Part shown: piece after piece, positions 15,982 through 64,000 of the stretch
Numbering within the stretch: the first letter of the stretch is position 1
How the letters are laid out: every line of letters starts with the position of its first letter
From: an uncultured bacterium
Lineage (GTDB): Bacteria; Babelota; Babeliae; Babelales; Babelaceae
Assembly (NCBI GenBank): GCA_963819815.1
Contig: CAWFXL010000001.1
Coordinates: 928,001 to 992,000 of the forward strand
Direction of reading: 5' to 3'
DNA: 64,000 nucleotides
Program-made: the position numbers and the translations under genes
Notes under the pieces: generated by a model
The model's input: the letters and a program-made list of their open reading frames with translations, nothing else
Told to the model about the DNA's origin: nothing
Databases searched by the model: none

Positions 15982-16012
15982 AACCTAGCTTGAATAGTCA
16001 GGCACCCACTCA

Positions 16013-16084
16013 TACTTATATGATGCACTCGCAGGATCAAGACATTCATGACACTGATCGCACTCATTAATGCCCTTAGCTAGA
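16013..16084 (+). pseudogene. Decayed copy of the 3' end of the 6430-8376 gene
   Basis: TACTTATATGATGCACTCGC...TCAAGACATTCATGA...CTCATTAA aligns with TACTTATACGACGCGCTTGC...TCAAGATATTCATGA...CTCAATAA at 8317-8376 and its flank. Confidence 0.7.
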
Positions 16085-16156
16085 CACCTGCCATCCACTC
16101 TTATGTACCAAAGGCGTAATAAGGGCGACCTGGGTACGGCTTTCTCTGCAAAATAA

Positions 16157-16184
16157 TTGACAATTTGTTAAAATTCTATACACT
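16157..16184 (+). promoter_or_regulatory. Sigma70-type promoter of the ankyrin array, copy 2 (TTGACA-N16-TACACT)
   Basis: Near-identical to 8473-8500, including the downstream CGTATATACTTTGAC. Confidence 0.65.
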
Positions 16185-16241
16185 AAATCGTATATACTTT
16201 GACTTAATTTGAATTAATTTTTTTCTATAGGAAAAAGTCTC

Positions 16242-45979: not shown

Positions 45980-46453
45980 CTACCAAACGAGCCCTATAAT
46001 CGAACTCTTTGCTATAGGCCCAAAAACGCGACTATCATCATGCTGAGCAGAAAGATTATCTGACAGTACAAAGACATGCCCTTGTGGAATCTCCAACGGT
46101 GTATCGATTGCATAGGAGCCTTGCTTCCAGCCGGTCCAATTTCTCTTGATTTTGGTATCTTCAAGTGCAGCACCGTTCACTACGACACTACCTTCATGAA
46201 TCTGCAGAGTATTTGTCGCTAGGGCTACAATGCGGGATATCCACACTTTCCCCTCATGCGTAAATAAGACAATATCGCCAATCTGATAATGTCTCAGATA
46301 TGGAGCTAGTCGATTCAAAAAGGTGTACTGTCCATCCTTAACTGCGGGCTCCATACAATCGCCCGAAACGCGCCAAGGCCAGGCGCATACCCACGCCACA
46401 ATGATCATGGCAATAAGGGTTACCAATATATGCTTAAATGTGAATTTAATCAT
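45980..46453 (-). CDS. Signal peptidase I (S26)-like protein with atypical active-site residues
   Basis: TM, then VSGDCMEP, GDIVLF, ISRIVA and VFVLSDN..DDSRVFGPI boxes. Start is ATG 46453; the longer ORF runs through the tRNA genes. Confidence 0.82.
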   Translation of the reverse strand: MIKFTFKHILVTLIAMIIVAWVCAWPWRVSGDCMEPAVKDGQYTFLNRLAPYLRHYQIGDIVLFTHEGKVWISRIVALATNTLQIHEGSVVVNGAALEDTKIKRNWTGWKQGSYAIDTPLEIPQGHVFVLSDNLSAQHDDSRVFGPIAKSSIIGLVW

Positions 46454-46503
46454 AGTCTCAACTCTTCCTGGCACAAGCAAAAAGTGCGTGCATATGGACA
46501 AAC

Positions 46504-46581
46504 TGGCGTCCCTAAGGGGATTTGAACCCCTGTCTCCGCCGTGAAAGGGCGACGTCCTAGACCAGGCTAGACGATAGGGAC
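46504..46581 (-). tRNA. tRNA-Glu (TTC)
   Basis: GTCCCTA...TAGGGAC acceptor stem, anticodon loop CTTTCAC, GGTTCAAATCC T-arm, encoded CCA. Confidence 0.95.
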
Positions 46582-46591
46582 AGCGATGCTT

Positions 46592-46667
46592 TGGTGAGCC
46601 GTGATGGACTCGAACCATCGACCCACAGATTAAAAGTCTGTTGCTCTACCAACTGAGCTAACGGCTC
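46592..46667 (-). tRNA. tRNA-Lys (TTT)
   Basis: GAGCCGT...ACGGCTC acceptor stem, anticodon loop CTTTTAA, GGTTCGAGTCC T-arm, encoded CCA. Confidence 0.96.
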
Positions 46668-49630: not shown

Positions 49631-50545
49631 ATGGAAACCTTCACGTATAGGGTAGAGAGCGATGTGGTGGGAAGCCGCTTGGATCGCTTATTAACCCAAA
49701 AGCTCCAGGATCGATCTCGCACCTATATCCAAGAACTTATTGAGGCTGACTGCGTTACCGTGAATGGTACCTATGCCAACAAACCAAGCTTAGCAGTGAA
49801 GCTGGGCGATACGATTCACGTGAGTATCCCCGCAGTTGTACCTCGTGGTGCCTTAGCCTTACCTTCGCAAGATATGGGCGTTCGTATCCTCTTTGAGCAT
49901 GAAGAGTTTCTCATCGTCTATAAGCCAGCAGGGCTCGTAGTGCATGCTCCTCATGCACAGAGCACTGAAGTCTCCTTAGTTGATTGGCTCGTTCACTCTT
50001 TCAAGGATCTCAAAACAGTAGGGCCCGAAGATCGGCCAGGAATCGTACACAGGCTTGATAAAGATACCTCAGGAATACTTATAATACCGCGCACTAATCA
50101 GGCTCATGCTGCATTTACTGCTCTTTTTCAAGAGCGATCTATTGAAAAAACCTATCTTGCTGTAGTCAAAGGACACCCTAAGAAAGAAGGGCTGATCGAT
50201 CTTGCTCTTGGACGTCATCCTGTGCATCGCCATAAAATAGCAGTTTTGCCTCATGGCAGAGAATCATCTACGAACTATGAAGTCGTATCATACTTACAAG
50301 AAAGCGCCTTACTCAAGGTCCGGCCTCACACGGGGCGAACTCATCAGATTCGAGTCCATTGCGCCGCACTTGGACATCCCGTGCTTGGCGACGCTACCTA
50401 CGGGACAACGCATACGTTGATAGCACGACATGCTTTACATGCCTATCAGCTTGCGTTTACGTATAAAGATCATTGGTACAGTTTTTCGTATGATATGCCT
50501 CAAGATATGAAAGCACTAATCATAGAGCTCCAGACTCAGCTCTGA
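49631..50545 (+). CDS. rluD: RluA-family pseudouridine synthase (RluD-like)
   Basis: S4 domain (RLD...SRT), KPAGLVVH, GIVHRLDKDTSG and TGRTHQIRVH. ATG at 49631 after AGGTG. Confidence 0.85.
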   Translation: METFTYRVESDVVGSRLDRLLTQKLQDRSRTYIQELIEADCVTVNGTYANKPSLAVKLGDTIHVSIPAVVPRGALALPSQDMGVRILFEHEEFLIVYKPAGLVVHAPHAQSTEVSLVDWLVHSFKDLKTVGPEDRPGIVHRLDKDTSGILIIPRTNQAHAAFTALFQERSIEKTYLAVVKGHPKKEGLIDLALGRHPVHRHKIAVLPHGRESSTNYEVVSYLQESALLKVRPHTGRTHQIRVHCAALGHPVLGDATYGTTHTLIARHALHAYQLAFTYKDHWYSFSYDMPQDMKALIIELQTQL

Positions 50546-52448
50546 GGCGCTGGCGCTGCTGACGCAGCTCCTCAAGAGGATCTCCTCCCCATGAACGATT
50601 CCACCACCAATAGGTTGCCCCAGTTAGCACTATTCCTGTCATAAAGTGTTTAAGGGTCTGTTTCCAGTTCTCAAAGAATGATTTTCGCCCTTTTTGGTTT
50701 GCTTTTTGCTGAGCAAGTTCCTTATCATCTTGCCCTTGGGCTTCTTGATTTCCCGCTCCTTTACCGCCTGAAACAATCGGTTTTTCAGGCATCTTCTCTT
50801 GGAGCCATTCACCCTCTTCCCCCTCAAAACGAGCAGTTAAGCCAGAATTAAACTCATCAAGGCGCTTCTTAAAGTGGGCTGCCGTTTGCGAATCTATGGT
50901 GGAGAGATAATGCTCAGAAGTACCAAGTCTTTGATAAGGATGGTCAGGTGAGACATACTGGCTCACATCTTTCGTATAATCAGCAAGTACTTCCTCTACC
51001 GATGGAGCTTCAACATCGCTTATTACGGTGCGGTAGCCGAAGGTACCCTGAACTCGTGCACTCCTTCGTACCTGATGCCTTTTTTTAAAGTCTGCCCCAT
51101 TAAGAAGAAGGAACGAAAAAAAGCGTCCGAGCATTTTTTTCCTAGTTTCGGTCATGAAATCATAATTGCAATATTCACGCAATACCACATACAGGACTGA
51201 AAGACCCGAAGGTTCGTAAGCATTAGCCAAGGCTGGCCGTTCTTTAATTATCTCAAAAGCATTAGACAACTGGTCATCATCATTTGAATATTCTAGAAGT
51301 GAATTGAAAAGATCTGCAGCCGCATAGGCGGAAACTTTTTGATCATTCGGTTGCACAGCAGGGGCAGGATTACCCCCAGCAGCTCCTTCTTCACTGGATT
51401 CTTGTTGATTTCTCTGAACTTTGTAGGCAGCAAATTTTCCAGGAAAGTAAGTGGTATCAAAAATTTCAATAAGCGGCTCACAGTCTTCCTCATTTTGAAG
51501 GAAGCAGTCCATCAGATCATCGAGTTGGCGCACAAACTGCGCATCGTTTCTGCCATTATTGAGGATGGCAATAAAGGCATCTGTAAGCATTCTACAATTA
51601 TATTTCTCCACATACCAGTAGTCACTATGGGTTATGAGACTACCTCTTCCAAAAAAGCTCCTGTGGTATAACCTGACTATACCCTTACGATCATCTTCCG
51701 TCTTTGGGCAATCAAGAAGCCATCGCTCCACAACGTAGCGAATGAGTGTCTTACCATGCGGATCTTTCTCGCAGTAGTCAGCCACTGTAAGCCCGTCTGT
51801 ATTTAAGTGGAGATGAGAGCTCCTACTTAAGTGATATCGATAACTTTTAAATCGCAATGCAGCAAGAGCACTATCATTTGATGGGCGAACATAGGTAAAA
51901 GCTTTTTCAGCCTCCTCAGCATTCTCTTCTGGTATCTCATTTTCTGGTTCAGCAGGCTCTGGGAAAATATCAGGAAATGCATCGCAAAGAATCGTAATAC
52001 AAGCTCCATAGTTCTCTCCATTGTTTTCAAACTCTTTCATGAGATCTTTCAAAGTCTTTTCAAAAGGCTCATGGCCCTTGCCAGTGTTAACCAATGCAGC
52101 AAAAACCTCATATAATGACTCTTGCTGAGCCCTTGTTTCCCTAAGCTCGCCTTCTAGTCGTTCATTCGAAGCCGCCTCCAAGCTCCTTTCAAGCCTCTCT
52201 CGCTTTTGGGTCGCATCAGCATAGAGCTTTCCAATATGGCCCAAAAGGCTCTTCCCTTGATAGCTATGCACGAGAACCTCTTTATGCTTTCCGATTAAGA
52301 GAAGAGACTCTTTCGTAGGCTGGTTTCGGTGTATATCAGAGAGAAGCCCTTTACAGAGACTATCCATTTTTTCGACACTGAGAACAGAGTGTGCGCCAAA
52401 ACAGTTCATAGCTACCATCAAGGTTATTACGAGTATCCTTTGTATCAT
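50520..52448 (-). CDS. Signal-peptide protein with C-terminal TM anchor, 642 aa
   Basis: MIQRILVITLMVAMNCFGA; C-terminal FMTGIVLTGATYWWW; degenerate ANK-like segments. Confidence 0.8.
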   Translation of the reverse strand: MIQRILVITLMVAMNCFGAHSVLSVEKMDSLCKGLLSDIHRNQPTKESLLLIGKHKEVLVHSYQGKSLLGHIGKLYADATQKRERLERSLEAASNERLEGELRETRAQQESLYEVFAALVNTGKGHEPFEKTLKDLMKEFENNGENYGACITILCDAFPDIFPEPAEPENEIPEENAEEAEKAFTYVRPSNDSALAALRFKSYRYHLSRSSHLHLNTDGLTVADYCEKDPHGKTLIRYVVERWLLDCPKTEDDRKGIVRLYHRSFFGRGSLITHSDYWYVEKYNCRMLTDAFIAILNNGRNDAQFVRQLDDLMDCFLQNEEDCEPLIEIFDTTYFPGKFAAYKVQRNQQESSEEGAAGGNPAPAVQPNDQKVSAYAAADLFNSLLEYSNDDDQLSNAFEIIKERPALANAYEPSGLSVLYVVLREYCNYDFMTETRKKMLGRFFSFLLLNGADFKKRHQVRRSARVQGTFGYRTVISDVEAPSVEEVLADYTKDVSQYVSPDHPYQRLGTSEHYLSTIDSQTAAHFKKRLDEFNSGLTARFEGEEGEWLQEKMPEKPIVSGGKGAGNQEAQGQDDKELAQQKANQKGRKSFFENWKQTLKHFMTGIVLTGATYWWWNRSWGGDPLEELRQQRQRLRAESGAL

Positions 52449-52462
52449 AGCTATCCTCGTTC

Positions 52463-53422
52463 CTATTGCAGCTGTTGCAGTTGGGCAACGTTATTTGGTT
52501 GTGCTTGAAGCCCCTTATCACTACCTGAGCGCATAAGATACAACAAAACACCTATCAATCCTATGCCACCGGCTAGATACATTCTGTAGGGGCGAATTTT
52601 TTGATAGGCAGGATTTAGGAACTTCTTTGCCCGGGCTGTAAGTTCACGAACACTAGGCAATGATTTTTTTTGTAAACCAGCTTTTTCATTTTTATAGAGC
52701 TCTGAAGCATTATGAATACCTTTATTCATAATACGTGCCACTGATTCTCCTTTGGCGTCCGGCATATCAACGTCAGCGCCTTTTCGAATAAGATGGGCAA
52801 ACATCTGCACTGATTTAGCATCATTGGCAACGAACTGCTCTGCTGCAGCATGAAGTAATGTTTTACCCTCAAAAGGACAGTACATTTCAACGAGCATTGA
52901 ATAGGGAATATCGTTCGTGTTCCCCGTAGGCTTCAAAAGTTCATCTAGAGCATGAATATCTTTATCACGGACTGCTTTAAATGCTAACGGAAGTTGCTTG
53001 CGGAGAGTTTCGTAGGTAAGTCCAATGGCTTTAAGATCAGGAACTTCCACAAGATCATCAACATTCAATCGACTCTCACTATCTGCTACAAAATCTGCAC
53101 CACATTTAAGGAGAATCTCCCAGAGCTTTTTAAAGCGCTCTCTTTTGTCTAGGTCTGCCTTATCAAGTCGTGCACCCAGATACACGAGAATCTCCAAAGG
53201 ATAATAACCATCTGCATCCTGCAACGAATAATACCGAAAGTTCTTCTTAACGGCCCAGGCGCAGTAAGCATAGTTGTCCTCTGTGAGGTCATTAAGACCG
53301 TTTATAAACCTTTGCTCACTAAGATCACTATCTTCAAAGCTATAGATTTTGGGATTACTCGCAGCATTACTGAGAGATATACCTAAAAAGCTGAAGGCTA
53401 AGCCTAAGATTTTATAGTTCAT
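52463..53422 (-). CDS. Signal-peptide ankyrin-like protein with C-terminal TM anchor
   Basis: ATG at 53422 after AAAGGA; GKTLLHAAA...GADVDMPD ANK repeat; YLAGGIGLIGVLLYLM anchor. Confidence 0.82.
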   Translation of the reverse strand: MNYKILGLAFSFLGISLSNAASNPKIYSFEDSDLSEQRFINGLNDLTEDNYAYCAWAVKKNFRYYSLQDADGYYPLEILVYLGARLDKADLDKRERFKKLWEILLKCGADFVADSESRLNVDDLVEVPDLKAIGLTYETLRKQLPLAFKAVRDKDIHALDELLKPTGNTNDIPYSMLVEMYCPFEGKTLLHAAAEQFVANDAKSVQMFAHLIRKGADVDMPDAKGESVARIMNKGIHNASELYKNEKAGLQKKSLPSVRELTARAKKFLNPAYQKIRPYRMYLAGGIGLIGVLLYLMRSGSDKGLQAQPNNVAQLQQLQ

Positions 53423-53439
53423 ACTGTTCCTTTGCATAG

Positions 53440-54375
53440 CTAAGCATATCTTTGCGCCTGCTCACTTCCCTTAGTTTGGGACACATTGTCATTACTTGTG
53501 GAAAGATACCAATAAATAGTATAACCCACGAGAGCACCTAAACCAAGAAGTAGTCGAGACCATCGTTTCTGCTTGTTAGCATGTTGCTCTTCTTCTTTCT
53601 TCAGCTGATCACTGATTTGTTGTAAACGATCGCTGACATTGTGTAAACGAATGCTCATGTTGGACTCGCCTCTTAAACGGCTACAAAGATCCTCCCATGT
53701 CTGCCCAATATTTCTATTATGGGCCATATACACATCCTGCAAATCTTCAATATCGCAATCAGCGAAAGATAGAGGGGCTGGGTGCTCTAAGCCATAGGTC
53801 GACCCAGTACCAACATCAAGAAGATAAGCAAGTATATTCCTATGCTGCTCTTTTTCATCTTCTGTGCCCTTTGGATAGGCAATAATAAGTGTGGCTATAG
53901 GGGAAAGACCTGTCGCTGGATCGATCGCATAGCGCATTTCCTGATCTTCAAAAATCGCGTGCTTAATAAAATCGAGAGATTCTTCAGAGGGATCCTTAAG
54001 CTCTGCAAAGAACCGTTTACTCATTCCTAGCTTATTTTTTCGAACTTTCTCAATACAATCGAGAGGCTCTTCAGAAGGATGCTTAAGCTCATCAAAAAGT
54101 TGCTTATTCATTCCCGTCCTATTCTTGCCTGCATACCACGTGCGGAAACTCTTCATTATCGCAGAAGGGCCCCAAGAGGTCGTTGGCTTATCAAACCACG
54201 CCTCAGCCTCTTGTTCTGTCATTAAGCGACCACTCTCAAAATATCCGGGCCTCATCCCAGCTTTTAAGAGCTCCTCTTTCGTCAAGATGTTTGGCGACTC
54301 AGAAGCGTAGGCATATCCTGTTATCAACAGGAACACCATACAGCTCTTACGTATGAGTGGCATGCGTATCATCAT
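53440..54375 (-). CDS. Signal-peptide protein with C-terminal TM anchor, 311 aa
   Basis: N-terminal hydrophobic segment ending AYA; internal near-repeat GMNKQLFDELKHPSEEPLD / GMSKRFFAELKDPSEESLD; LLLGLGALVGYTIYWYL anchor. Confidence 0.8.
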   Translation of the reverse strand: MMIRMPLIRKSCMVFLLITGYAYASESPNILTKEELLKAGMRPGYFESGRLMTEQEAEAWFDKPTTSWGPSAIMKSFRTWYAGKNRTGMNKQLFDELKHPSEEPLDCIEKVRKNKLGMSKRFFAELKDPSEESLDFIKHAIFEDQEMRYAIDPATGLSPIATLIIAYPKGTEDEKEQHRNILAYLLDVGTGSTYGLEHPAPLSFADCDIEDLQDVYMAHNRNIGQTWEDLCSRLRGESNMSIRLHNVSDRLQQISDQLKKEEEQHANKQKRWSRLLLGLGALVGYTIYWYLSTSNDNVSQTKGSEQAQRYA

Positions 54376-54390
54376 GACAGTAATCCTTAA

Positions 54391-55527
54391 TTAGGCAGCA
54401 GCTACTTTTCCACCGGGACGTTCAGGAGTAGCTAAGGCACCATTTTTACTATAATAATAAAAATAATAGATCCCAGCTACGGCTGTTAATGCTCCCACAA
54501 TGGCACTAGCTTTATTAAATTTGTGTGCTTTTCTATCCGCTATAAGCTTTTCTTGGGCTTTGCGTTCGCTTTCTTTACGATCTCGAATGTCATTAAGAGC
54601 ATTAAGACGATCCCTACTTAACGTTGGCCGTAGTAAGGCCTTGAGCTCATTAAGGCGGTCTTGTTTAGCTCCATCTTGAGGATAAGAAGCTTCAAACAAA
54701 AGCCATTCATCAAATGGTATGCTCGATAGACCTGCCTTTATAAGGAACTTTGATTCAATTCGGGGATCTTTTACCAGCGCCTCAAACCCATCAATCGGAG
54801 GGATAACGCCTTCAATCTCACCATGTATGTAGCCAAATGCAGCATTTGAAAGAGCCCTATTATCCCCATCAGGAACATCCAATAAATGTGCGTATGCATC
54901 ATTACGTAAGAAAGTTTGAATGACTTGCAGACGGCCTTGGTAACAAGCAGCACTCCAATCCTGCAGAGTAAACCCATCTTTCAGCTGAGGATCTCCAGAG
55001 AGAGGGAATGATTTCCTCTTCCAAATTGCCTGTTCAATAAAACCTAGAACCTGTCCCACCATTCCATCATTACCATGCTTTTTTCGAAATGCTTGAAACT
55101 GTCGAAACCCCCAACCTGCTTTATCGGTTATAAAATCAAGGACCTCTTGCTTGACTGAATCGAGTAATTTTTTCGTATCTTCTGGCTTAGCCGCTGCAGA
55201 CGCTGTAAAATCACTAAACCATTGTATGGCTGTCTCTTTTAACTGACCCAATGTTTCTGGATCTGAAATAACTCCCCGTACCATGCCAGCAGCATTATTA
55301 ATGAGAATATCCCCAAACACCGCTCTTAATTGAGGGTTCTGGGCATTGGCAAGAATTGCATTCCCAATGAGCGCCTGGAATTCGGGACTATCAGCATTTT
55401 GATTAATCGCATTGCGAATAAAGGCTTGCATAGCAGGATCTTGAGCGCCACCACCGCGGTTCATTGCTTGAATCGATTCAAAGCTTGAGACAATGAGTGT
55501 TGCAATTAAGAATCGCTTTAATAGCAT
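54391..55527 (-). CDS. Signal-peptide protein with C-terminal TM anchor and AAA tail; ends shared with the 77-aa-repeat family, core different
   Basis: MLLKRFLIATLIVSSFESIQAM; AIVGALTAVAGIYYFYYY...KVAAA. Confidence 0.82.
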   Translation of the reverse strand: MLLKRFLIATLIVSSFESIQAMNRGGGAQDPAMQAFIRNAINQNADSPEFQALIGNAILANAQNPQLRAVFGDILINNAAGMVRGVISDPETLGQLKETAIQWFSDFTASAAAKPEDTKKLLDSVKQEVLDFITDKAGWGFRQFQAFRKKHGNDGMVGQVLGFIEQAIWKRKSFPLSGDPQLKDGFTLQDWSAACYQGRLQVIQTFLRNDAYAHLLDVPDGDNRALSNAAFGYIHGEIEGVIPPIDGFEALVKDPRIESKFLIKAGLSSIPFDEWLLFEASYPQDGAKQDRLNELKALLRPTLSRDRLNALNDIRDRKESERKAQEKLIADRKAHKFNKASAIVGALTAVAGIYYFYYYSKNGALATPERPGGKVAAA

Positions 55528-55584
55528 AGTGTTCCTTCACGCCCATAGAGATACATAGTTTCAACTGTTACGTCCAGTAATACC

Positions 55585-55613
55585 ACAATACCATAAAATA
55601 AGTCTATCTTCAA
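55585..55613 (-). promoter_or_regulatory. Conserved cassette promoter, copy A (TTGAAG-N17-TATTGT)
   Basis: One of six homologous copies, each upstream of a family gene. Confidence 0.65.
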
Positions 55614-55693
55614 AGGCCCGAGTACTTTGCTGCCTCCAGCAAGGCCTGGGGGAATGCCAAGTATGCCTTTTAGGTAAGCCCCTAGAATGGAGA

Positions 55694-55725
55694 AGAGCCT
55701 GTGCCTATACTAGAGTACAGGCTCT
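55694..55725 (-). terminator. Conserved AGAGCCTG...CAGGCTCT hairpin, copy 1
   Basis: Inverted repeat 15 nt after the stop of the 55741-57324 gene. Confidence 0.65.
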
Positions 55726-55740
55726 CATTATGATTCTTAG

Positions 55741-57324
55741 TTACGCTGCGGCAGGCAGGGCCTGCGGCTTCTCAGAAACGTTCTTCTTAGGATCTTTATA
55801 GATCATATAATAGTACAAGAGACCTGCACCAGCAGCGAGGGCGCCAAGTCCTACCGCCTTAGACCAATTAGCCTTTTTACCATCATGAGCATTGGTTGTC
55901 GTAGACTTAAAGAGATCTGATAAGTCATTCCTCTTAAGAGCATCAATTCTTTGGGCAAGCGTTATTTTCTTATCAAAATCATAGTAGATTTTATGAGCAT
56001 CTACTTTAACGAAGTCTTGCCATTCCTTCAGATCTGCAAATACCTTTTGATCTTGTTCATAGGCTTTAAATAAAGTCAGTACTATCGATTCCTGGTTCCG
56101 ACGAGCACCTTGAAAAAGTTTAGCTACAGCTAGTGCCTCTTTCCTATGAGCATCAGTGATTAAACGCTCCGTTATGCGATCTCCGATCGTATCTTTAAGC
56201 AGGCGATAGTATACCTTATCTATGTCTACAGGAAATTGATTAAGCCAGCTTTTAAGGTCATCATATACCCCATTATCATGTTCATAGGCTTTATATAAAA
56301 CCCGAACTACTTCTTTCTCGAATGAGCGATCCCGCTGTACAACTGCAGCAGCGGCTAGCGCTTTTTGCCTTGTCGTGGGAGAATTGAGAAGCTCCGTAAT
56401 GCGCTCTCCAATCTTCTTGCCTGGATTGGCTGGATCATAGTCAACTTCATCTACATCTTCTCTTCCTTCGAGCCCATCAACCCATTTTTTCAGATCCTCA
56501 AGTACCTCTAGGTCGCTTTCATATGCCCTATAGAGGGTTTGCATTACTATATCATTTTTTGATCGCTTCTCCTCAACAATCATGGCAACTGCCAATGCAG
56601 CTTTCCTCGTTGCCTTCTCTTGTAAGCCATCTGTAATATGATCACCAATCTTCTTGCCTGGACTTGCTGGATCATAGTCAATCCTATCGATATCTTCTTC
56701 GAACTCATCAATCCACGTTTTCAGATCTTCTAGTGCCCTTGGATCGCTTTCACAAACTTTACACAAAGTCTGCAATACTGATTCTTTCTTCGAACGAGTA
56801 TCTTGCACAATCTTAGCAATTGCTAATGCATCTTTTCGAATGCTGGCTTCTAAAAGTGTGGCGATGTCCTCACCAATCGTGCATTGTATGTGCTGTACAA
56901 GGCAACTGCCCCTTTCAATATCAATCTTAATAGCATCTACATCTTCCTCGAAATGATAGAGCCAATCTTGCATATCAGCCAATACCTTTTGATCATTTTC
57001 GTAAGCTTCATACAGTGTCTTGAAAGTTTCCTTCTTATTTGAGCGACTATTTTGTACAAGCTTAGCAATGGCTAATGCTCCTCTCCTATGTACTGTCCTC
57101 AAACCGTAAGTAATGAGCTGGCCTACAGTCATGCCTGGCTCAATTAAAAGTTTATCAACATCACATACATTTCTTTTGAAGCGCTCTTCAAAGGCCCTAT
57201 AGGCAGCTTTATCTACAAGAGCCGTTTCAAGAAGTGCTATGAAAGTAGGATCAGCCATCGCTTGAATCGATCCAAAACTTGAGACTATGAGGGTCACCAT
57301 TACCAGTCGTTTTGATAGCATCAT
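55741..57324 (-). CDS. Tail-anchored ~77-aa repeat protein (5 units)
   Basis: Signal peptide; five RKxALAVAKLV...LYKAYE.D...W...D.D...YD...TIG.RI units; GALAAGAGLLYYY anchor; ends QALPAAA. Confidence 0.88.
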   Translation of the reverse strand: MMLSKRLVMVTLIVSSFGSIQAMADPTFIALLETALVDKAAYRAFEERFKRNVCDVDKLLIEPGMTVGQLITYGLRTVHRRGALAIAKLVQNSRSNKKETFKTLYEAYENDQKVLADMQDWLYHFEEDVDAIKIDIERGSCLVQHIQCTIGEDIATLLEASIRKDALAIAKIVQDTRSKKESVLQTLCKVCESDPRALEDLKTWIDEFEEDIDRIDYDPASPGKKIGDHITDGLQEKATRKAALAVAMIVEEKRSKNDIVMQTLYRAYESDLEVLEDLKKWVDGLEGREDVDEVDYDPANPGKKIGERITELLNSPTTRQKALAAAAVVQRDRSFEKEVVRVLYKAYEHDNGVYDDLKSWLNQFPVDIDKVYYRLLKDTIGDRITERLITDAHRKEALAVAKLFQGARRNQESIVLTLFKAYEQDQKVFADLKEWQDFVKVDAHKIYYDFDKKITLAQRIDALKRNDLSDLFKSTTTNAHDGKKANWSKAVGLGALAAGAGLLYYYMIYKDPKKNVSEKPQALPAAA

Positions 57325-57384
57325 GTTCCTTTAGCCTCATAGAGACGTATAATCTGCATTTTTGTGGTCCAGTTCAGTACTACT

Positions 57385-57413
57385 ACGATATCATAAAATA
57401 CAACTCTCTTCAA
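57385..57413 (-). promoter_or_regulatory. Conserved cassette promoter, copy B (TTGAAG-N17-TATCGT)
   Basis: Homologous to copy A, same spacing. Confidence 0.6.
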
Positions 57414-57499
57414 AGACCAGAGCTTTCCTCATATCTGAAAGCATTGAAGGGCTTCGCCTTTTCCGCCTAATCTCCGTAGAAATTTCCAACACATACGAA

Positions 57500-57530
57500 A
57501 GAGCCTGTACCCATTATAGGCACAGGCTCT
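57500..57530 (-). terminator. Conserved AGAGCCTG...CAGGCTCT hairpin, copy 2
   Basis: Inverted repeat just after the stop of the 57546-58745 gene. Confidence 0.65.
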
Positions 57531-57545
57531 CGTATTAATTCTTAG

Positions 57546-58745
57546 TTACGCTGCAGCAATCAGGGTCTGAGGTTTCTCAGAAATAGTATTTTTAGGATCT
57601 TTGTAGTTCATATAATAGTACAGGAGCCCTGCACCAGCAATGAGCGCTCCAACTATTCCAGCCTTCTTGCTCATTGACCATTTGGCCTTTTTAGCATCAT
57701 CAGCATTAGCTTTTGGTTTTGCATTGGCATCAGAAGGAGCTGACTTGGAGAGCTTAAAGATATTTGTTACATCATCTCTTTTGAGACCTGCAACCCTTTG
57801 AGCAATCGTTATCTTCTTGGCAGAATCATAATAGATTTTACTACTATCTGCTTGAACAAATTCTTGCCATTCCCTCAAGTCTGCAAATACCTTTGAATCT
57901 TTTTCATAAGCTTTAAATAAGGTCACGAGTACAGAGTTCTTTCTTGAGCGAACTCCCTGTGCAAGCTTAGCAAATGCTAATGCCTCTTTCCTGTGTTCGT
58001 TCGTACTTAAGCGCTCTGTAACACGTTCACCAATCGTCTTGCCTGGACGTGCTGGATCAAAGTCTATAGCATCTATATCTTCTCCGCCCTCTAAGAAAAG
58101 ATCGAACCAATAGTGTAGATCCTCAAGAGCTGTTAAATCGTTTTCATAGGCTTTATAGAGGGTTTGCAGTACTGATTGGTAATTGGAACGATCAACGTAT
58201 AGAATATCTGCAACTTTTATTGCTTCTCTTCTCGTCGCTTTCTCTTGTAAACGCTTTGTTAGGTGTTCACCTATAGTCATATCACGCTTAGCAGGATCAT
58301 AGTATAGTTTATCAACGTCTGGGCGAGCATACTCAACCCAATCTTCTAGCTCATCCAGTACTACTAACCCGCTTTCATGACCCTTATATAAGGTCCGGGT
58401 AACTGATGGCTTATCACTTCGTTTAACATACACAAGCTTAGCCACAGCCAAAGCTTCTTTCGTAAGGCTAAATACTACTTTATGCCTCCGAACAACCTTG
58501 TCGAGTCTCTCATTAACCAAACCCTCATTAATGAACTGGCCTACTGTCTTCCCTGGCTCAATAAGACGGTCATCAACATCAAAAGTGTCTCTTCTATAAT
58601 AATCTTGAAAGGCTTTATAGGCAGTATGATCAACAAGAGCCCTTTCAAGTAGCTCTTTAAAAGTAGGATCAACCATATCCATAGCTTGCATCGATCCAAA
58701 GCCTGAGACACCGAGAACTATAATTAAAAGACGTTTTAATACCAT
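57546..58745 (-). CDS. Tail-anchored ~77-aa repeat protein (3 units)
   Basis: Signal peptide, three repeat units, GALIAGAGLLYYY anchor, ends QTLIAAA. Confidence 0.88.
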   Translation of the reverse strand: MVLKRLLIIVLGVSGFGSMQAMDMVDPTFKELLERALVDHTAYKAFQDYYRRDTFDVDDRLIEPGKTVGQFINEGLVNERLDKVVRRHKVVFSLTKEALAVAKLVYVKRSDKPSVTRTLYKGHESGLVVLDELEDWVEYARPDVDKLYYDPAKRDMTIGEHLTKRLQEKATRREAIKVADILYVDRSNYQSVLQTLYKAYENDLTALEDLHYWFDLFLEGGEDIDAIDFDPARPGKTIGERVTERLSTNEHRKEALAFAKLAQGVRSRKNSVLVTLFKAYEKDSKVFADLREWQEFVQADSSKIYYDSAKKITIAQRVAGLKRDDVTNIFKLSKSAPSDANAKPKANADDAKKAKWSMSKKAGIVGALIAGAGLLYYYMNYKDPKNTISEKPQTLIAAA

Positions 58746-58802
58746 ACTATTCCTTCATGCTCATAGAGGTGTATCGTTTTCAACTTTTACGAACTGCTTA
58801 TT

Positions 58803-58831
58803 ACACTAGCAAGAAATAGCTCTCTTTTCAA
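58803..58831 (-). promoter_or_regulatory. Conserved cassette promoter, copy C (TTGAAA-N17-TAGTGT)
   Basis: Homologous to the other copies, same spacing. Confidence 0.55.
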
Positions 58832-59015
58832 AGACCTTAGTTTTGCAGAACTCAGAAAACAAAAAAAACATTATATAGTTGGAGCGAACCTTTAGAATGA
58901 GAAGCTCTAACTAGAGGACCGAAGTAGATCATCAGATTACCTAATGCGGATCGCTGCCATCTGCAAAAAAAATAAAATCTCGCTTCTCTATACAATCTGA
59001 TTATCTACATTGGAA

Positions 59016-59045
59016 AGAGCCTGCACTCCATCGTAGGCAGGCTCT
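59016..59045 (-). terminator. Conserved AGAGCCTG...CAGGCTCT hairpin, copy 3
   Basis: Inverted repeat just after the stop of the 59057-60604 gene. Confidence 0.65.
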
Positions 59046-59056
59046 CGAAATGATTC

Positions 59057-60604
59057 TTATGCTGCAGCAGGCAGAGTCTGCGGCTTTTGAGAAATAGTAT
59101 TCTTAGAATCCTTGGCATTCATAAAATAGTACACGAGTCCTGCACCAGCAATGAGTGCTCCAACTACTCCAGCCTTCTTACCCATTGACCATTTACCATC
59201 ATGAGTTATTTTTCTATCTACTTTATAGACTTTTTTATCTATATTTGGGGTTGCAGGAGAAAGCTTAAAGAGATTCGATACATCATCCCTCTTGAGAGTT
59301 TCAATTCTTTGAGCAAGCGTTACCTTCTTATCAGAATCATAATAGATTTTACTACTATCTGCTTTGACAAAGTCTTGCCATTCTTTTAGATCAGCAAATA
59401 CCGTCGTATCTTTTTCATAGGCCTTAAACAAGGTCACCAGTACTGAGTGCTTATTTGAGCGGGTTCTCTGTGCAAGCTTAGCAAATGCTAATGCCTCTTT
59501 CCTGTGCTCATTTGCACTAAGCTCTGTAAATCGTTGACTATCTTTACTTACAGGAGCACCGACCGCGCCAGCCCCCTTTTTTTTGGAGAAAAAGGCCCCA
59601 AACGGATTGCCTAGAGAACTAAACACTGAAGGTGCAGTCTCTTTTACTGAAGTATCCTTGCTTTGTGCATTCATGTTTAAACGCTCCGCAAGACGATCCC
59701 CAATGGTCTTACCAGGCTTAGCAGGATCATAGTCTATAGTATCTATATTGTCTGCCTCCTCCTCGAACTCATTAAGCCAATTTTCCAGATCTTCGAGTGT
59801 TGTCGGATCGCTTTCATAGGCTTGGTAGAGGGTTTGCATTACTGAACGCCTATTTGAGCGCTGCGTATCTACAATTATAGCAATCTCTAATGCTTCTTTT
59901 CTTGTCTCTTTTGCGCGTAAGAGCTCCGTAATGCGCTCTCCCATAGTTTGCTTACTCTTACCATTATAGTAGAACTGATCTACGTCTAGAGGGAACTTCT
60001 TAATCCAACTTTTTAGATCGTCCAACACGTCTTGACCACTTTCATACGCCCGATAGAGGGTATGAAAAACTGAACATTCCAAAGAGCGATAAGGCTGAAA
60101 AAGCTCAGCAACTGCTAAGGTTGCTTCTCTCGTCTCATCAACATCTAAACGCTCAGTAATCCGATCAGCAATGGTCTTATCACTCTTCTTCGCAGGATCC
60201 TGGTAATGGTACCGATCTATGTCAGGTTGAGCGTACGGAACCCACCATGCTATAGCATCTAATACCGCATAACCATTCTCATAAGCTTTGTATAAAGTTC
60301 TAATAACCGATCGCTTATCGGTTCGCCTACAATGCACAATTCGAGCAACTAAAACCGCTGTGTTCGTATGAGTAACCAAAGCTTCAGAAATGCGTTGACC
60401 TACAGTCTTACCTGGCTCAATAAAAAGTTCATCAACATTACACATATCGCCGTTGAAATGATTTCTGAAGTCTTCATTAGCAGCCCGATCAATGAGGGCC
60501 CTTTCAAGAAGCTCTTTAAAAGTAGGATCAACCATATCCATAGCTTGCATCGATCCAAAGCCTGAGACCACGAGGATTATAATTAAAAATCTTTTTAATG
60601 GCAT
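59057..60604 (-). CDS. Tail-anchored ~77-aa repeat protein (4 units plus insertion)
   Basis: Signal peptide, four repeat units, ~50-aa insertion, GALIAGAGLVYYF anchor, ends QTLPAAA. Confidence 0.88.
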   Translation of the reverse strand: MPLKRFLIIILVVSGFGSMQAMDMVDPTFKELLERALIDRAANEDFRNHFNGDMCNVDELFIEPGKTVGQRISEALVTHTNTAVLVARIVHCRRTDKRSVIRTLYKAYENGYAVLDAIAWWVPYAQPDIDRYHYQDPAKKSDKTIADRITERLDVDETREATLAVAELFQPYRSLECSVFHTLYRAYESGQDVLDDLKSWIKKFPLDVDQFYYNGKSKQTMGERITELLRAKETRKEALEIAIIVDTQRSNRRSVMQTLYQAYESDPTTLEDLENWLNEFEEEADNIDTIDYDPAKPGKTIGDRLAERLNMNAQSKDTSVKETAPSVFSSLGNPFGAFFSKKKGAGAVGAPVSKDSQRFTELSANEHRKEALAFAKLAQRTRSNKHSVLVTLFKAYEKDTTVFADLKEWQDFVKADSSKIYYDSDKKVTLAQRIETLKRDDVSNLFKLSPATPNIDKKVYKVDRKITHDGKWSMGKKAGVVGALIAGAGLVYYFMNAKDSKNTISQKPQTLPAAA

Positions 60605-60662
60605 AGTATTCCTTTATGCTCGTAGAGGTATATCTTTTTCGACTTCATGTTCAGTACTACAT

Positions 60663-60691
60663 ACCATAGCATGAAATACGTATCTCTTCAA
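60663..60691 (-). promoter_or_regulatory. Conserved cassette promoter, copy D (TTGAAG-N17-TATGGT)
   Basis: Homologous to the other copies, same spacing. Confidence 0.6.
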
Positions 60692-60777
60692 AGGCCTTAG
60701 TTTTTGCCGCAATACGTAATATCGTGGCAAATTCTCATTATATCTTGTGAGTGATCTCAAGAAAATCGCATTAAAAA

Positions 60778-60809
60778 AGAGCCTGCACTCCATTATAGGC
60801 ACAGGCTCT
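60778..60809 (-). terminator. Conserved AGAGCCTG...CAGGCTCT hairpin, copy 4 (with U tract)
   Basis: Inverted repeat followed by TTTTT on the minus strand, after the stop of the 60824-62185 gene. Confidence 0.72.
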
Positions 60810-60823
60810 CGTATAATTCTTAG

Positions 60824-62185
60824 TTACGCCGCAGCAGGCAACTGAGGTTGCTCTGATAGTTTATTTTTAGAATCTTTATTGTTCATAAGATAGTACAAGA
60901 GACCTGCACCAGCAGCAAGCGCTGTAACAACTCCAACCTTCTTGCCCATTGACCATTTGGCCTTTTTACCATCAACTGGTTGCGTTATCGTAGAGTGCTT
61001 AAAGAGATTTGAGACATCATCCCTGTTGAGAGCTGCAACTTTTTGAGCAATCGTTATCTTCTTAGCAGAATCATAGTAGATTTTGCTAACATCTGCTTTA
61101 ACAAATTCTTGCCATTCCTTCAGATCACTAAATACCGTTGGATCTTTTTCACAGGCTTTAAATAAGGTCAGCAATACTGAATTCTTCAGTGAACGGGCAC
61201 CTTGCACAAGCTTAGCAACAGCTAATGCTTCTTTCCTATGGGTATTCGTCCTTAGATGTTTTGCGAGGCGATCCCCAATAGTCTCAATACGCTTAGCACG
61301 ATCATAAAATACCATATCTATATCTAGAGGAAACTTCAGAAACCAACCTTCGAGTTCAGCATATACTGCATTATCGCATAGGTAGTCCTTAAATAATTCC
61401 CGGAATATTACCTTCTTGCACGAGCGAGCCTCCTGTACAACGGCGGCAACGGCAAGTGCTTCTTTCTTATCCCTCTGAGTTCTTAAACGTTCTGTAATGC
61501 GATCACCAATAGTCTTGCCCGGATCTTGCGGATTGTAGTCTATTTCATCCACATCATCTGCACCTTCGAATGCAACAATCCATTTTTTTATGTCTTCAAG
61601 TACTGTATGATCTTTTTCATAGGCCGCATACAGTGTTTGCATTACTATATCCCTATTTGCACGGTACTCGTCTACAAGAATGGCAACATCTAATGCTGCT
61701 TTTCGGGTATCTTTTGTCTTTAAGCGATCTACGATGTGCTCACCAATGGTTCCGCCATCCTCATTGGCAGGATCATAATAGATATCATCTACATCTAGGT
61801 AGAGATCGTCGGGAAAATCCTCAATCCAATGTTCTAGATCAGCTAATACTGTCTGATCCTCTTCATGAAGTTTATATAATTCCCGAAAAACTGATGACTT
61901 GTCCGAGCTTTCATTAAGAACAAGCCGAGCAACAGTGAGAGCTGCAGCTCGATGTTGGGTGCCCAAAAATGTATTGATGTGCTGACTAACGGTCACACCT
62001 AATGTGTACATCAGTTCATCAACATCAAATGGGTTAGCTCTGAAATGTTCTTCAAAGGCTTCAAAGTGCTTTTGATCCTGAACAGCCCTATCAAGAAGCT
62101 CCTCGGTGACCTGATCAATCACTGCTTGCACCGATCCAAAACCTGAGATTACAAGGCCTACAATTATAAATCGTTTTAATGACAT
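60824..62185 (-). CDS. Tail-anchored ~77-aa repeat protein (4 units)
   Basis: Signal peptide, four repeat units, TALAAGAGLLYYL anchor, ends QLPAAA. Confidence 0.88.
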   Translation of the reverse strand: MSLKRFIIVGLVISGFGSVQAVIDQVTEELLDRAVQDQKHFEAFEEHFRANPFDVDELMYTLGVTVSQHINTFLGTQHRAAALTVARLVLNESSDKSSVFRELYKLHEEDQTVLADLEHWIEDFPDDLYLDVDDIYYDPANEDGGTIGEHIVDRLKTKDTRKAALDVAILVDEYRANRDIVMQTLYAAYEKDHTVLEDIKKWIVAFEGADDVDEIDYNPQDPGKTIGDRITERLRTQRDKKEALAVAAVVQEARSCKKVIFRELFKDYLCDNAVYAELEGWFLKFPLDIDMVFYDRAKRIETIGDRLAKHLRTNTHRKEALAVAKLVQGARSLKNSVLLTLFKACEKDPTVFSDLKEWQEFVKADVSKIYYDSAKKITIAQKVAALNRDDVSNLFKHSTITQPVDGKKAKWSMGKKVGVVTALAAGAGLLYYLMNNKDSKNKLSEQPQLPAAA

Positions 62186-62239
62186 AGCATTCCTTTACGC
62201 TCATGGAAGATAGCTTCAGCTTTTTACGTACCTTAAGCC

Positions 62240-62268
62240 ACAATACCATAAAATAGGTCTCTCTTCAA
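62240..62268 (-). promoter_or_regulatory. Conserved cassette promoter, copy E (TTGAAG-N17-TATTGT)
   Basis: Homologous to copy A, same spacing. Confidence 0.65.
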
Positions 62269-62382
62269 AGGCCTTATGTGCTTCTGGCGATGACATATTT
62301 CATTATATCTCATGAGATACCAAAACATCGAAAGCTTTCACCTGAGACATAGAAGCCCTCATTCACTTCACATGCAATGAGA

Positions 62383-62416
62383 AGAGCCTGCACCCTATTA
62401 TAGGAGTACAGGCTCT
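62383..62416 (-). terminator. Conserved AGAGCCTG...CAGGCTCT hairpin, copy 5
   Basis: Inverted repeat just after the stop of the 62432-63301 gene. Confidence 0.65.
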
Positions 62417-62431
62417 CGTAATGATTCTTAG

Positions 62432-63301
62432 TTACGCTGCTGCAGGCAACTGAGGTTGCTCTGATAGTTTATTTTTATCCTTACTATTCATGTAGTAGTA
62501 CAAGAGACCTGCACCAGCAGCTAGTACTACAACTCCAACCTTCTTACCCATCGACAATTGCATCTTTTTACCATCATTGTTTGTCTTAGGGAGATTAAAG
62601 AGTTTCAACAGATCATCCCTATTAAGAGCTTGAATTCTTTCAGCAATCGTTTCAGAACATGCAGGATCAAAGCGAATCACCTTAACATCTACTTTCACAA
62701 ATTCTTGCCATTCCTTCAGATCCCCAAATACCGATTGATCTATTTCATAAGCTTTGTACAAAGTCCGCAGTACTGATTCTTTCTCCGTACGAGCACCCTG
62801 AACAAGCTTAGCAACAGCTAATGCACCTTTCCGAGCACTATGCAATCTTAAGCGCTGAGCAATGCATTCACCAAAGGTCTTGCCTGGATGGACTGGATCA
62901 TGAACCACCGTATCTACATCTAGAGGGAACTGGTCAAACCAATATTTTAGGTCCTTCAGTGCTGTTGGATCGATCACCTGAGCTTTATATAACTGCCTGA
63001 AAACGTCTGACTTATTCGAGCGACGGTTTTGTATAAGCTTAGCAACAGCTAGTACCCCTTCTCTCTGTTTATAGTACAAACGATGAGAAATAAGCTGACC
63101 TATAGTGACACCATCTCTGCTCATAATGGTATCAACATCAACTCGATTTTTATTGAAGTACTCTTCAAAGGCTTTATAGCCAGCTTGGTCCCGAAGAGCC
63201 CCCTTAAGAAGGTTTTTGAAAGTCTTAAGATCAAACGTAGCTTGAATCGATCCAAAGAATGAGACTATAAGGGTTACCATCAGGAGTCGTTTTACGTACA
63301 T
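62432..63301 (-). CDS. Tail-anchored ~77-aa repeat protein (2 units)
   Basis: Signal peptide, two repeat units, VLAAGAGLLYYY anchor, ends QLPAAA. Confidence 0.88.
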   Translation of the reverse strand: MYVKRLLMVTLIVSFFGSIQATFDLKTFKNLLKGALRDQAGYKAFEEYFNKNRVDVDTIMSRDGVTIGQLISHRLYYKQREGVLAVAKLIQNRRSNKSDVFRQLYKAQVIDPTALKDLKYWFDQFPLDVDTVVHDPVHPGKTFGECIAQRLRLHSARKGALAVAKLVQGARTEKESVLRTLYKAYEIDQSVFGDLKEWQEFVKVDVKVIRFDPACSETIAERIQALNRDDLLKLFNLPKTNNDGKKMQLSMGKKVGVVVLAAGAGLLYYYMNSKDKNKLSEQPQLPAAA

Positions 63302-63352
63302 AGTGTTCCTTTATGGAGATGTATAAGCTTCAACTTTTTCCTACTGTGTACA

Positions 63353-63381
63353 ACAATAGCATAAAATCCCTCTCTCTTCAA
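63353..63381 (-). promoter_or_regulatory. Conserved cassette promoter, copy F (TTGAAG-N17-TATTGT)
   Basis: Homologous to copy A, same spacing. Confidence 0.65.
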
Positions 63382-63492
63382 AGGTAGTACATTGCATAAG
63401 AGAAAAGTGCTGTACATTTCTTACTCATGAACCGTTCTTTCCCTCAGGCATTTGCTCCAGCCAATGCCTTCACGAACCCCACTACATGCAAA

Positions 63493-63522
63493 AGAGCCTG
63501 GACTATGATAAGTCCAGGCTCT
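63493..63522 (-). terminator. Conserved AGAGCCTG...CAGGCTCT hairpin, copy 6
   Basis: 12-bp perfect stem AGAGCCTGGACT / AGTCCAGGCTCT after the stop at 63537. Confidence 0.7.
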
Positions 63523-63536
63523 CGTACTCATGTAAT

Positions 63537-63998
63537 TTACGCAGCTAGGGTCTGGTGCTCATTTTTAGAATCTTTAGAGTTCATATAATAATAGTAGCAC
63601 AAGACACCTGCACCAGCAGCAAGTGTTGTAAGTCCTAGCGTCTTACCGATTGACCATTTAGCCTTTTTATCATCGGGAGTCTTGGCCTTTGGTTGCGCTG
63701 TAGCAGTTATCTTAAAGAGATTTGTTAGGTCATCTCTCTTAAGAGCTTCAATTCTTTGAGCAATCGTCTCAGGAAGAGCAGGATCAAAACGAATCGCTGT
63801 AATATCTGCGTTAACAAATTCTTGCCATTCTTTTAGATCTGCAAATACGGTTTGATCCTTTTCATACGCTGTATACAAAGTTCGCAATACCGATTCTTTA
63901 TCAGAACGGTCACCCTGTACAAGCTTGGCAACCGCCAATGCATCTTTTCTTGTCTTGTCCTTACTTAAACGCGCTGCAATGCGCTCACCAATGGTTTT
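63537..63998 (-). CDS. Tail-anchored ~77-aa repeat protein, 5'-truncated by the window edge
   Basis: Frame is open to the window end (KTIGERIAARLSKDKTRKDALAVAKLV...); TLAAGAGVLCYYYY anchor; ends QTLAA. Confidence 0.85.
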   Translation of the reverse strand, partial: KTIGERIAARLSKDKTRKDALAVAKLVQGDRSDKESVLRTLYTAYEKDQTVFADLKEWQEFVNADITAIRFDPALPETIAQRIEALKRDDLTNLFKITATAQPKAKTPDDKKAKWSIGKTLGLTTLAAGAGVLCYYYYMNSKDSKNEHQTLAA

Positions 63999-64000
63999 AC

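Follow-up and report, generated by a model that had tools for sequence, protein, structure and literature searches.

A cluster of leader-bearing proteins with C-terminal tails

We analyzed a 64,000-nucleotide stretch of contig CAWFXL010000001.1 (assembly GCA_963819815.1, positions 928,001 to 992,000), hereafter the window, from an uncultured bacterium of the family Babelaceae, and describe a family of proteins with a C-terminal tail encoded by ten consecutive open reading frames (ORFs), w1 to w10, at its end (Table 1). A sequence-only reading of this DNA had pointed to ten consecutive leader-bearing ORFs from position 50520 onward that finish in anchor-like tails, and this description was borne out: the ORFs lie on the minus strand, and leaders were present in all nine complete ones (w10 is cut by the window end). 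Judged by sequence, these nine have Sec-type leaders, in which a Lys/Arg n-region precedes a hydrophobic core (best 12-residue Kyte-Doolittle mean, 1.88–2.79) and small-x-small residues, as in SIQA↓M, form the putative cleavage site. All ten tails comprise several Lys/Arg residues together with Trp, Phe or Tyr, an apolar stretch of 17–19 residues (Gly/Ala/Ser making up 16–47% of the best 19-residue window), aromatic residues, and a polar end of 13–26 mixed residues with a net charge of 0 to +2. The aromatic cluster, which had been ascribed to all ten, is a true Tyr/Trp cluster in nine; w2 has one Tyr (LYL). The w1 stretch is the weakest of all tails (best 19-residue Kyte-Doolittle mean, 0.43). 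By a crude hydropathy cut (15-residue mean ≥1.5 inside the last 60 residues), a C-terminal hydrophobic stretch was found in 9 of the 10 cluster ORFs (w1 fails) and in 1 of the 22 leader-bearing ORFs in the rest of the window (Fisher p = 3.4e-6). The sole ORF that passed outside the cluster did so through a charged amphipathic stretch without an aromatic cluster. A complex prediction for two copies of the 55-residue tail, bearing on the idea of glycine-zipper self-association, scored 0.02, which is no answer and evidence neither way.

The nearest relative is a metagenome-assembled genome (MAG) of Candidatus Dependentiae (TM6), represented here by two loci, L001 and L002. L001 is syntenic with the window, and the cluster is longer there: 11 genes with tails are complete, and the w4 ortholog is represented by its start. 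Of these genes, three fall outside window coverage; they encode a 1134-residue repeat protein, a 348-residue ankyrin protein and a 691-residue ankyrin protein, whose counterparts in the window's genome are P0012, P0028 and P0024. L002 holds a single lone family member of 736 residues, and the window's genome has a further member, P0011. Taking the carriers in the window locus, L001, L002 and the further members together, there are therefore about 14–15 carriers per genome, nearly all in one locus. Orthologs were assigned to w1 (P0025; identity 91% in the core and 96% in the tail), w2 (P0022), w3 (P0017; 80.5% core, 91.7% tail), w4 (P0015, in the MAG) and w10 (P0005, 444 residues). A protein search with w9 returned just 8 proteins, located on the window's own 1,604,641-bp contig and on a 49,980-bp contig.

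Selection on the tail and divergence of the cores

Six ortholog pairs between the window and the MAG, at a synonymous divergence (dS) of about 0.17–0.25, gave ratios of nonsynonymous to synonymous substitution (dN/dS) of 0.36 in the cores (1922 codons), 0.30 in the tails (286 codons) and 0.65 in the leaders (109 codons). Since orthologs in a second genome give values of 0.30–0.36, we take w1–w10 to be real genes. The tails are under purifying selection.

Within the window, w5–w10 form a family of six paralogs composed of repeats of a 78-residue unit. Across the 15 pairs among them, residue identity was 70% in the tail, 62.5% in the last unit, 63% in the leader and 44% in the N-terminal cap. 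Identical codons at identical residues were used at comparable rates in these regions (tail, 68.6%; last unit, 68.8%; leader, 73.2%; N-terminal cap, 64.5%). Gene conversion as the cause of tail conservation was ruled out on this account, codon identity being alike (64.5–73.2%) across regions; the ends are therefore kept by protein-level selection and not by recent local gene conversion. A trio of ankyrin-type carriers (from the MAG, the window's genome and a 4,533-bp contig) had leaders identical at 20/20 residues, cores 46–63% identical and tails 64–81% identical, with tail identity above core identity in two of the three pairs and equal to it in the third. When window/MAG pairs were pooled, identity was 74% for leaders, 82% for cores and 81% for tails, in a pool that includes one non-orthologous pair (w2/P0015). 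Constant ends around a fast-changing middle are the pattern of a family whose middle would meet a changing partner.

Distribution of the tail

We searched 1,835,955,588 representative proteins without a word index using a profile of the tail (A2; the last 55 residues of 14 carriers). Seventeen proteins matched at E ≤ 1e-3, 15 of them as C-terminal matches of this family; the other two (P0016 and P0019) were internal, multi-stretch matches in unrelated repetitive proteins. A second search (A5; 18 tails) covered longer proteins at E ≤ 10 in a word-indexed set of 5.8 billion, where an empty result is weak evidence, and gave 14 matches, exclusively family members, adding the 4,533-bp contig. In all, tail carriers lay on contigs of 1,604,641, 49,980, 58,565, 6,382, 7,359 and 4,533 bp, and as judged by these profiles the tail is confined to two to four closely related genomes. 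A tail-profile scan is blind to a degenerate signal class set by layout instead of sequence, and the ankyrin-type tail, though part of A2, missed E ≤ 1e-3 in the A2 search.

The sequence-only reading had proposed a general, undescribed sorting system. This was not supported: among 1.84 billion representatives the tail profile met just this family, and the tails have neither a shared motif nor a terminal basic cluster. That reading had itself named such a profile search as a check, counting recovery of these paralogs alone as the sequence half of the case against a general system, and these paralogs and their orthologs were all that the profile found. Among 73 proteins similar to the 348-residue ankyrin carrier, the tail occurred on its 3 orthologs alone, and 4 other relatives had a C-terminal hydrophobic stretch of a different kind; the notion that the tail is a common property of the nearest ankyrin relatives was rejected on this count. 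In the published literature on Dependentiae/TM6 (ankyrin proteins, secretion, effectors, genomes) we found no description of the tail or of the 78-residue repeat.

Neither A2 nor A5 contains an invariant column, and a K-W-S-M-G-K-K motif is restricted to the repeat-family tails. A hidden Markov model (HMM) built from the repeat-family tails alone and scored on the remaining ones recognized the w4 tail at 15.5 bits (p = 6.6e-7), that of the 348-residue ankyrin protein at 9.9 bits and the w3 tail at 5.9 bits (p = 7e-4). Nine of the 14 A2 tails terminate in Ala-Ala (…PAAA, …LAA, …TAAA). These ends occupy the C-terminal codons of w4–w10 (e.g. window 60827-60835) and, in L001, 3465-3473 and 7359-7364. 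They recall ssrA degradation tags, which end in LAA, and by that analogy an Ala-Ala end could turn a cytoplasmic tail end into a protease handle.

A predicted orphan helical repeat and other cores

The 78-residue repeat is present in 2–6 copies per protein, and an iterated HMM search collected 91 unit matches in 18 proteins. AlphaFold2 modeled w9 as all-helical, with a mean predicted local distance difference test score (pLDDT) of 78.4 and values of 79–96 over residues 21–240, and a single unit modeled with 48 aligned units was also all-helical (pLDDT 86.6). Neither the w9 model nor the single-unit model had a fold match in the PDB at E ≤ 1e-3; their best matches were designed helical repeats and ankyrin-type solenoids at TM-scores of 0.3–0.55. 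Pfam had no family in w5–w10, and a PDB sequence search returned no significant relative of the repeat. On these models, the 78-residue repeat is an orphan all-helical repeat without a Pfam or PDB relative. We do not claim an ankyrin origin for it, the ankyrin-type solenoids lying at the TM-scores given above and none at E ≤ 1e-3. Identity with a death domain was tried and rejected: a family profile (A1) matched FADD at E 0.058–0.27, the 48-unit profile (A4) lost the match, and a death fold was absent from the matches of the single-unit model (top 50 of 224 matches at E ≤ 10). In w7, an insertion that is rich in Gly/Ala/Ser/Phe and mildly hydrophobic, SVFSSLGNPFGAFFSKKKGAGAVGAP, interrupts one unit at residues ~318–360; the MAG orthologs have kept it (L001 12921-16122; L002 8597-10807).

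The cores had earlier been described as unrelated. Differing kinds of core do occur; six of the ten proteins are paralogs, though, and several other carriers are ankyrin or ankyrin-like. Pfam ankyrin families scored above the gathering score in two tail carriers, P0024 (Ank_4, 49.8 bits) and L001:2430-3473 (Ank_4, 36.8 bits; Ank_2, 34.5 bits), and no Pfam Ank match was obtained in w1 or w3–w10. The w2 core reached E 7.2e-4 against Pfam Ank (20.2 bits, under the 21.1 cut-off), and its top PDB sequence match was a designed ankyrin at a non-significant E of 0.27. The w4 protein has the leader type (…SFESIQA↓M) and AAA end of the repeat family with a different core, for which the best PDB sequence matches were designed ankyrin fusions (E 0.6–0.8, not significant). 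For the w1 core, ankyrin is a weak lead (Atlas ankyrin clusters at 0.86–0.87) and there was no PDB sequence match; the w3 core had no family or other match in Pfam, NCBIfam or a further search. These assignments support the view that the tail sits on at least three kinds of putative exported ectodomain: the 78-residue repeat, true ankyrin repeats, and cores that are unique or resemble ankyrin weakly.

Cassette elements and transcript layout

The six intergenic regions upstream of w4–w9 align and have a hairpin, a box and a ribosome site in conserved positions (Table 1). The hairpin motif has 6 sites in 64 kb, all in the cluster, with 0 expected, and the four of the six hairpins that were folded gave −16.8 to −26.4 kcal/mol (z −3.0 to −6.9). 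The box motif also has 6 sites in 64 kb, in the cluster alone and with 0 expected, ~65–90 nt before each start, and an AAAGGAA ribosome site lies downstream of it. The box may be read as TTGAAG, 17 nt and TATTGT with an upstream TG, and we infer a promoter role from its position and conservation. It matches 8 of 12 consensus positions, where a generic promoter scan requires 9. Because the generic promoter/terminator scan listed neither the box nor the hairpins (promoter-like sites, 20 versus 29.9 in shuffles), we treat these elements as putative promoters and terminators. No known RNA element was found in the conserved intergenic regions at E ≤ 0.1. The repeat-family genes are thus laid out as full cassettes of upstream box, ribosome site, leader, core, tail and hairpin. 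The gaps between w4, w3, w2 and w1 measure 15, 2 and 14 bp and contain no box or hairpin, so these four genes are probably read as one transcript from the w4 box.

Table 1. Tail-bearing genes of the cluster and their flanking elements (window positions)
Feature	Position	Strand	Length (residues)	Description
w1	50520-52448	-	642	Leader, unique core and tail KGRKSFFENWKQTLKHFMTGIVLTGATYWWWN, then 26 polar residues; last of the w4-w3-w2-w1 run
w2	52463-53437	-	324	Leader, weakly ankyrin-like core and tail KIRPYRMYLAGGIGLIGVLLYLMRS, then 20 polar residues
w3	53440-54375	-	311	Leader, family-less core and tail KQKRWSRLLLGLGALVGYTIYWYLST, then 18 polar residues
w4	54391-55527	-	378	Heads the tightly spaced run w4-w3-w2-w1
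w5	55741-57324	-	527	Leader, 5 full 78-residue units, C-terminal partial unit, tail KKANWSKAVGLGALAAGAGLLYYYMIYKDPKKNVSEKPQALPAAA
w6	57546-58745	-	399	Leader, 3 full units, partial unit, repeat-family tail
w7	59057-60604	-	515	Leader, 3 full units, 1 split unit, partial unit, repeat-family tail
w8	60824-62185	-	453	Leader, 4 full units, partial unit, tail GKKAKWSMGKKVGVVTALAAGAGLLYYLMNNKDSKNKLSEQPQLPAAA
w9	62432-63301	-	289	Leader, 2 full units, partial unit, repeat-family tail; protein modeled by AlphaFold2
w10	63537-window end (64000)	-		5' end cut by window; last unit and tail KKAKWSIGKTLGLTTLAAGAGVLCYYYYMNSKDSKNEHQTLAA
Hairpin GAGAGCCTG...CAGGCTCT	55694-55726	-		Directly behind the w5 stop
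Five further hairpins	57500-57531, 59016-59046, 60778-60810, 62383-62417, 63493-63523	-		Behind w6-w10
Upstream box CTTTGAAGA.A....ATTT..TG	55592-55615	-		Before w4
Five further boxes	57392-57415, 58810-58833, 60670-60693, 62247-62270, 63360-63383	-		Before w5-w9

Tail-less exported proteins and neighboring genes

On the plus strand of the window, positions 8558-38180 hold 17 tandem paralogous ORFs of 488–628 residues, each with a leader and none with the tail. Pfam ankyrin repeats were present in 3 of 3 that were scanned. This array is a second, larger expansion of exported scaffolds beside the cluster. Around the lone family member in L002 lie leader-bearing proteins with WD40 (443 residues), ankyrin (972 residues), ankyrin plus MYND zinc finger (480 residues) and ADP-ribosylglycohydrolase (456 residues) assignments, and the leader-bearing neighbors at 1487-5870, 12769-14139 and 15909-17351 form a eukaryote-like repertoire without the tail. 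In the cited part of the Chromulinavorax destructans report, signal peptides are given for 44% of coding sequences, and ankyrin proteins are abundant in exported sets (PMC6561590). Features common to TM6 genomes include, according to the cited passages of a published account, a degenerate Gram-negative envelope and a set of type II secretion genes in which gspD is present twice (PMC4776705).

Several other genes lie in the window. Two 260-residue paralogs (43385-44167 and 45018-45800, minus strand) begin with leader-like sequences and contain a P-loop domain of the PRK/uridine-kinase family (Pfam E 1.1e-6 and 1.3e-5); they may be exported nucleoside or nucleotide kinases. An ORF for S26 signal peptidase I (45980-46618, minus strand) overlaps tRNA-Glu (46504-46581) and tRNA-Lys (46592-46667) in its first ~38 codons, and its real start is therefore further downstream. 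Two leader-bearing ORFs of 408 and 648 residues (5179-6405 and 6430-8376, plus strand) have no Pfam family at E ≤ 0.001, the former ending in a Pro/Ala/Arg-rich region. A 197-residue ORF with one N-terminal helix and a PilN domain (39234-39827, plus strand; Pfam E 1.7e-5) was the sole gene related to pili or type II secretion seen in the window.

Interpretation and alternatives

The explanation that we favor, with a confidence that stands about even, is that the genes form a family private to this lineage and amplified in tandem, whose products are exported by Sec, anchored at the C-terminus and active at the host interface, with the tail serving as a stop-transfer anchor in the inner membrane. 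The leader would take each protein through SecYEG and be cut by signal peptidase I; the tail would then arrest transfer in the inner membrane, with the scaffold outside the cytoplasm and the ~20-residue polar end inside. On this explanation the tail would mark an anchored subset among the tail-less leader-bearing ankyrin, WD40 and other eukaryote-like proteins of the organism, and it would have spread by duplication and recombination within the cluster, not through being read by a widespread sorting machine. On present evidence, drawn from profiles and alignments, the tail appears to be a private anchor module of a small lineage of amoeba-type parasitic bacteria and not a widespread new sorting system.

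Several observations weigh against an inner-membrane anchor of common origin. The tail stretches are marginally hydrophobic (best 19-residue Kyte-Doolittle means of 0.43–1.64, compared with 1.57–2.54 for four MgtE transporter helices in the window), so stop-transfer is not assured. In 12 of 14 tails the N-flank of the stretch is richer in basic residues than the C-flank; the other 2 have equal flanks, and no tail has the reverse bias that an outside-in anchor should show under the positive-inside rule. In the w9 model, pLDDT falls to 30–41 in the tail and is under 50 over residues 243–289. The leave-out HMM scored the tails of w2 and the 691-residue ankyrin protein at −0.2 bits (chance, p about 0.05) and gave no hit for w1, and because these three tails went undetected, common descent of all tails is not established. 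Host contact is the usual reading of ankyrin-type exported proteins in Dependentiae, and periplasmic anchoring leaves such contact by ankyrin-type scaffolds unexplained. By analogy with host-membrane effectors, charge bias and marginal hydrophobicity would be typical of segments that insert from the other side; because of these two features, targeting to host membranes or the surface stays in play.

One form that such targeting could take is a new C-terminal sorting signal, with a membrane enzyme (e.g. a rhomboid-type protease) cutting the helix and the protein passing to the surface, perhaps via type II secretion. We consider this quite unlikely. A tail and leader on heterogeneous cores is the pattern from which Haft, in the cited passages, predicted sorting systems (PMC3237569), and the tail, which evolves under purifying selection, has diverged less than the core in two of the three ankyrin-trio pairs. 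The core genes of TM6 genomes include those for type II secretion, with gspD present twice (PMC4776705, in the part cited), and VesB of Vibrio cholerae provides a precedent in which, as far as the cited excerpts go, a leader and a Gly-rich anchor at the C-terminus go together with rhombosortase and retention at the surface (PMC6219818, PMC13393428). The definition given in the cited part of Haft's work, however, asks for signal-peptide carriers that are alike in the tail alone, a tail built of signature motif, helix and terminal basic cluster, and for a co-distributed enzyme (PMC3237569). Here the leader is present and a helix probably so. No motif is common to all carriers, A2 and A5 being without an invariant column, and the apolar stretch is followed by 13–26 mixed polar residues, not by a terminal basic cluster. 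The carriers are paralogs grouped together, not scattered, unrelated proteins, and none came to light outside the two to four closely related genomes. Among NCBIfam sorting-signal models there was no match: a scan of all ten proteins at E ≤ 1 gave just NF033158 MyrrCad, which scored 14.4 bits on w10, where the cut-off is 33. No candidate processing enzyme lay in the window, L001 or L002, with Pfam scans covering the window's other genes and L002; the sole peptidase was the housekeeping S26 signal peptidase I at 45980-46618.

The proteins might instead leave the bacterium, the tail inserting post-translationally in a host membrane in the manner of a eukaryotic tail anchor, with the scaffold toward the host cytosol; we hold this to be rather improbable. 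By definition, tail-anchored proteins lack an N-terminal signal peptide and have one helix no further than ~30 residues from the C-terminus. The position of the one short segment here, which is marginal in hydrophobicity and is followed by 13–26 residues, agrees with the second of these properties, but every complete tail protein has an N-terminal leader, unlike true tail-anchored proteins. The more basic N-flank in 12 of 14 tails would fit a protein whose bulk is on the cytosolic side, and the ectodomains are ankyrin or other helical-repeat binding scaffolds. Transmembrane segments of type III/IV effectors typically fall just below the inner-membrane targeting threshold, according to the cited portion of PMC6110835, and another bacterium of the phylum is described as replicating in contact with host mitochondria (bioRxiv 10.1101/379388, cited in part). 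Against this, a Sec leader leads to the periplasm, from which there is no known route for an exposed hydrophobic tail across the outer membrane and the vacuole. The cited passages of the phylum reports mention just Sec, type II secretion and type IV pilus genes, and no type III or IV system (PMC6561590, PMC4776705). Legionella transmembrane effectors that do pass through an inner-membrane intermediate have, in the section cited, short periplasmic loops and not domains of 250–1100 residues, and need a type IVB system (PMC11602083).

More broadly, the tail may be a true targeting module for the cell surface or for host membranes, a possibility that we judge unlikely. Its basic/aromatic flank, glycine-zipper-like marginal helix, tyrosine belt and conserved polar end would then carry Sec-exported ankyrin and helical-repeat scaffolds past the inner membrane of a bacterium without type III or IV secretion; the destination, on this account, would be the cell surface after processing or, as a tail anchor, a host organelle membrane. 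If true, this would be how Dependentiae present eukaryote-like scaffolds to their hosts. That the pattern is chance or an annotation artefact, made of non-coding ORFs or ordinary hydrophobic C-termini, has next to no likelihood in our estimate. Hydrophobic stretches can be alike by composition, and w2 and the 691-residue protein scored at chance in the leave-out test; but orthologs with dN/dS of 0.30–0.36, the enrichment of 9/10 versus 1/22, the same gene order and tails in a second genome, and confident structure models of the cores all speak for a genuine family.

Dependentiae are obligate protist parasites that export a very large share of their proteome with plain Sec leaders, many of these proteins being ankyrin, and how such Sec-exported proteins reach the host is an open question on which the locus bears. 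It sets an anchored subset, whose tail is under selection, apart from tail-less exported scaffolds, and offers one short module as a handle on the question. It also adds an orphan 78-residue helical repeat with a confident predicted fold and no Pfam or PDB relative. If the tail is merely a private anchor, the locus is a tidy case of a fast-evolving cassette family and no more.

Comparison with known systems

Mycoplasma variable lipoproteins are multigene surface families with conserved ends and variable repeat middles. The family described here resembles them in its tandem cassettes, conserved 5' region and leader, variable repeat number and fast divergence, and differs from them in its anchor, which would be a helix at the C-terminus where theirs is a lipid at the N-terminus. 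The family showed no phase-variation tract; the repeats found were two short ones of 21 bp.

The leader-bearing ankyrin proteins of Dependentiae (Babela, Chromulinavorax) likewise combine a Sec leader with a helical-repeat scaffold and form large paralogous expansions, as the cited passages describe (PMC6561590, PMC4776705). In contrast, those outside the cluster here have no C-terminal anchor, and the 78-residue repeat is not detectably ankyrin. With type III/IV transmembrane effectors and tail-anchored proteins, the tail shares a single moderately hydrophobic near-C-terminal segment, basic flanks and association with host-type domains (PMC6110835, cited in part); unlike type III/IV transmembrane effectors, the family combines Sec-type leaders, predicted to be cleaved, with large domains that would lie in the periplasm. 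There is a parallel in architecture with GlyGly-CTERM/rhombosortase (VesB), LPXTG, PEP-CTERM and MYXO-CTERM proteins, which in the cited accounts pair a leader with one Gly/Ala-rich C-terminal helix (PMC3237569, PMC6219818); in the tails described here such a helix is probable. As in the LPXTG/PEP-CTERM/GlyGly-CTERM class, according to the cited part of PMC3237569, the tail occurs on otherwise differing proteins of one genome and is lineage-restricted. Unlike the signals of that class, it has no common signature motif, places its basic residues before the putative helix and a polar end where the terminal basic cluster would be, and is carried mostly by tandem paralogs in one locus.

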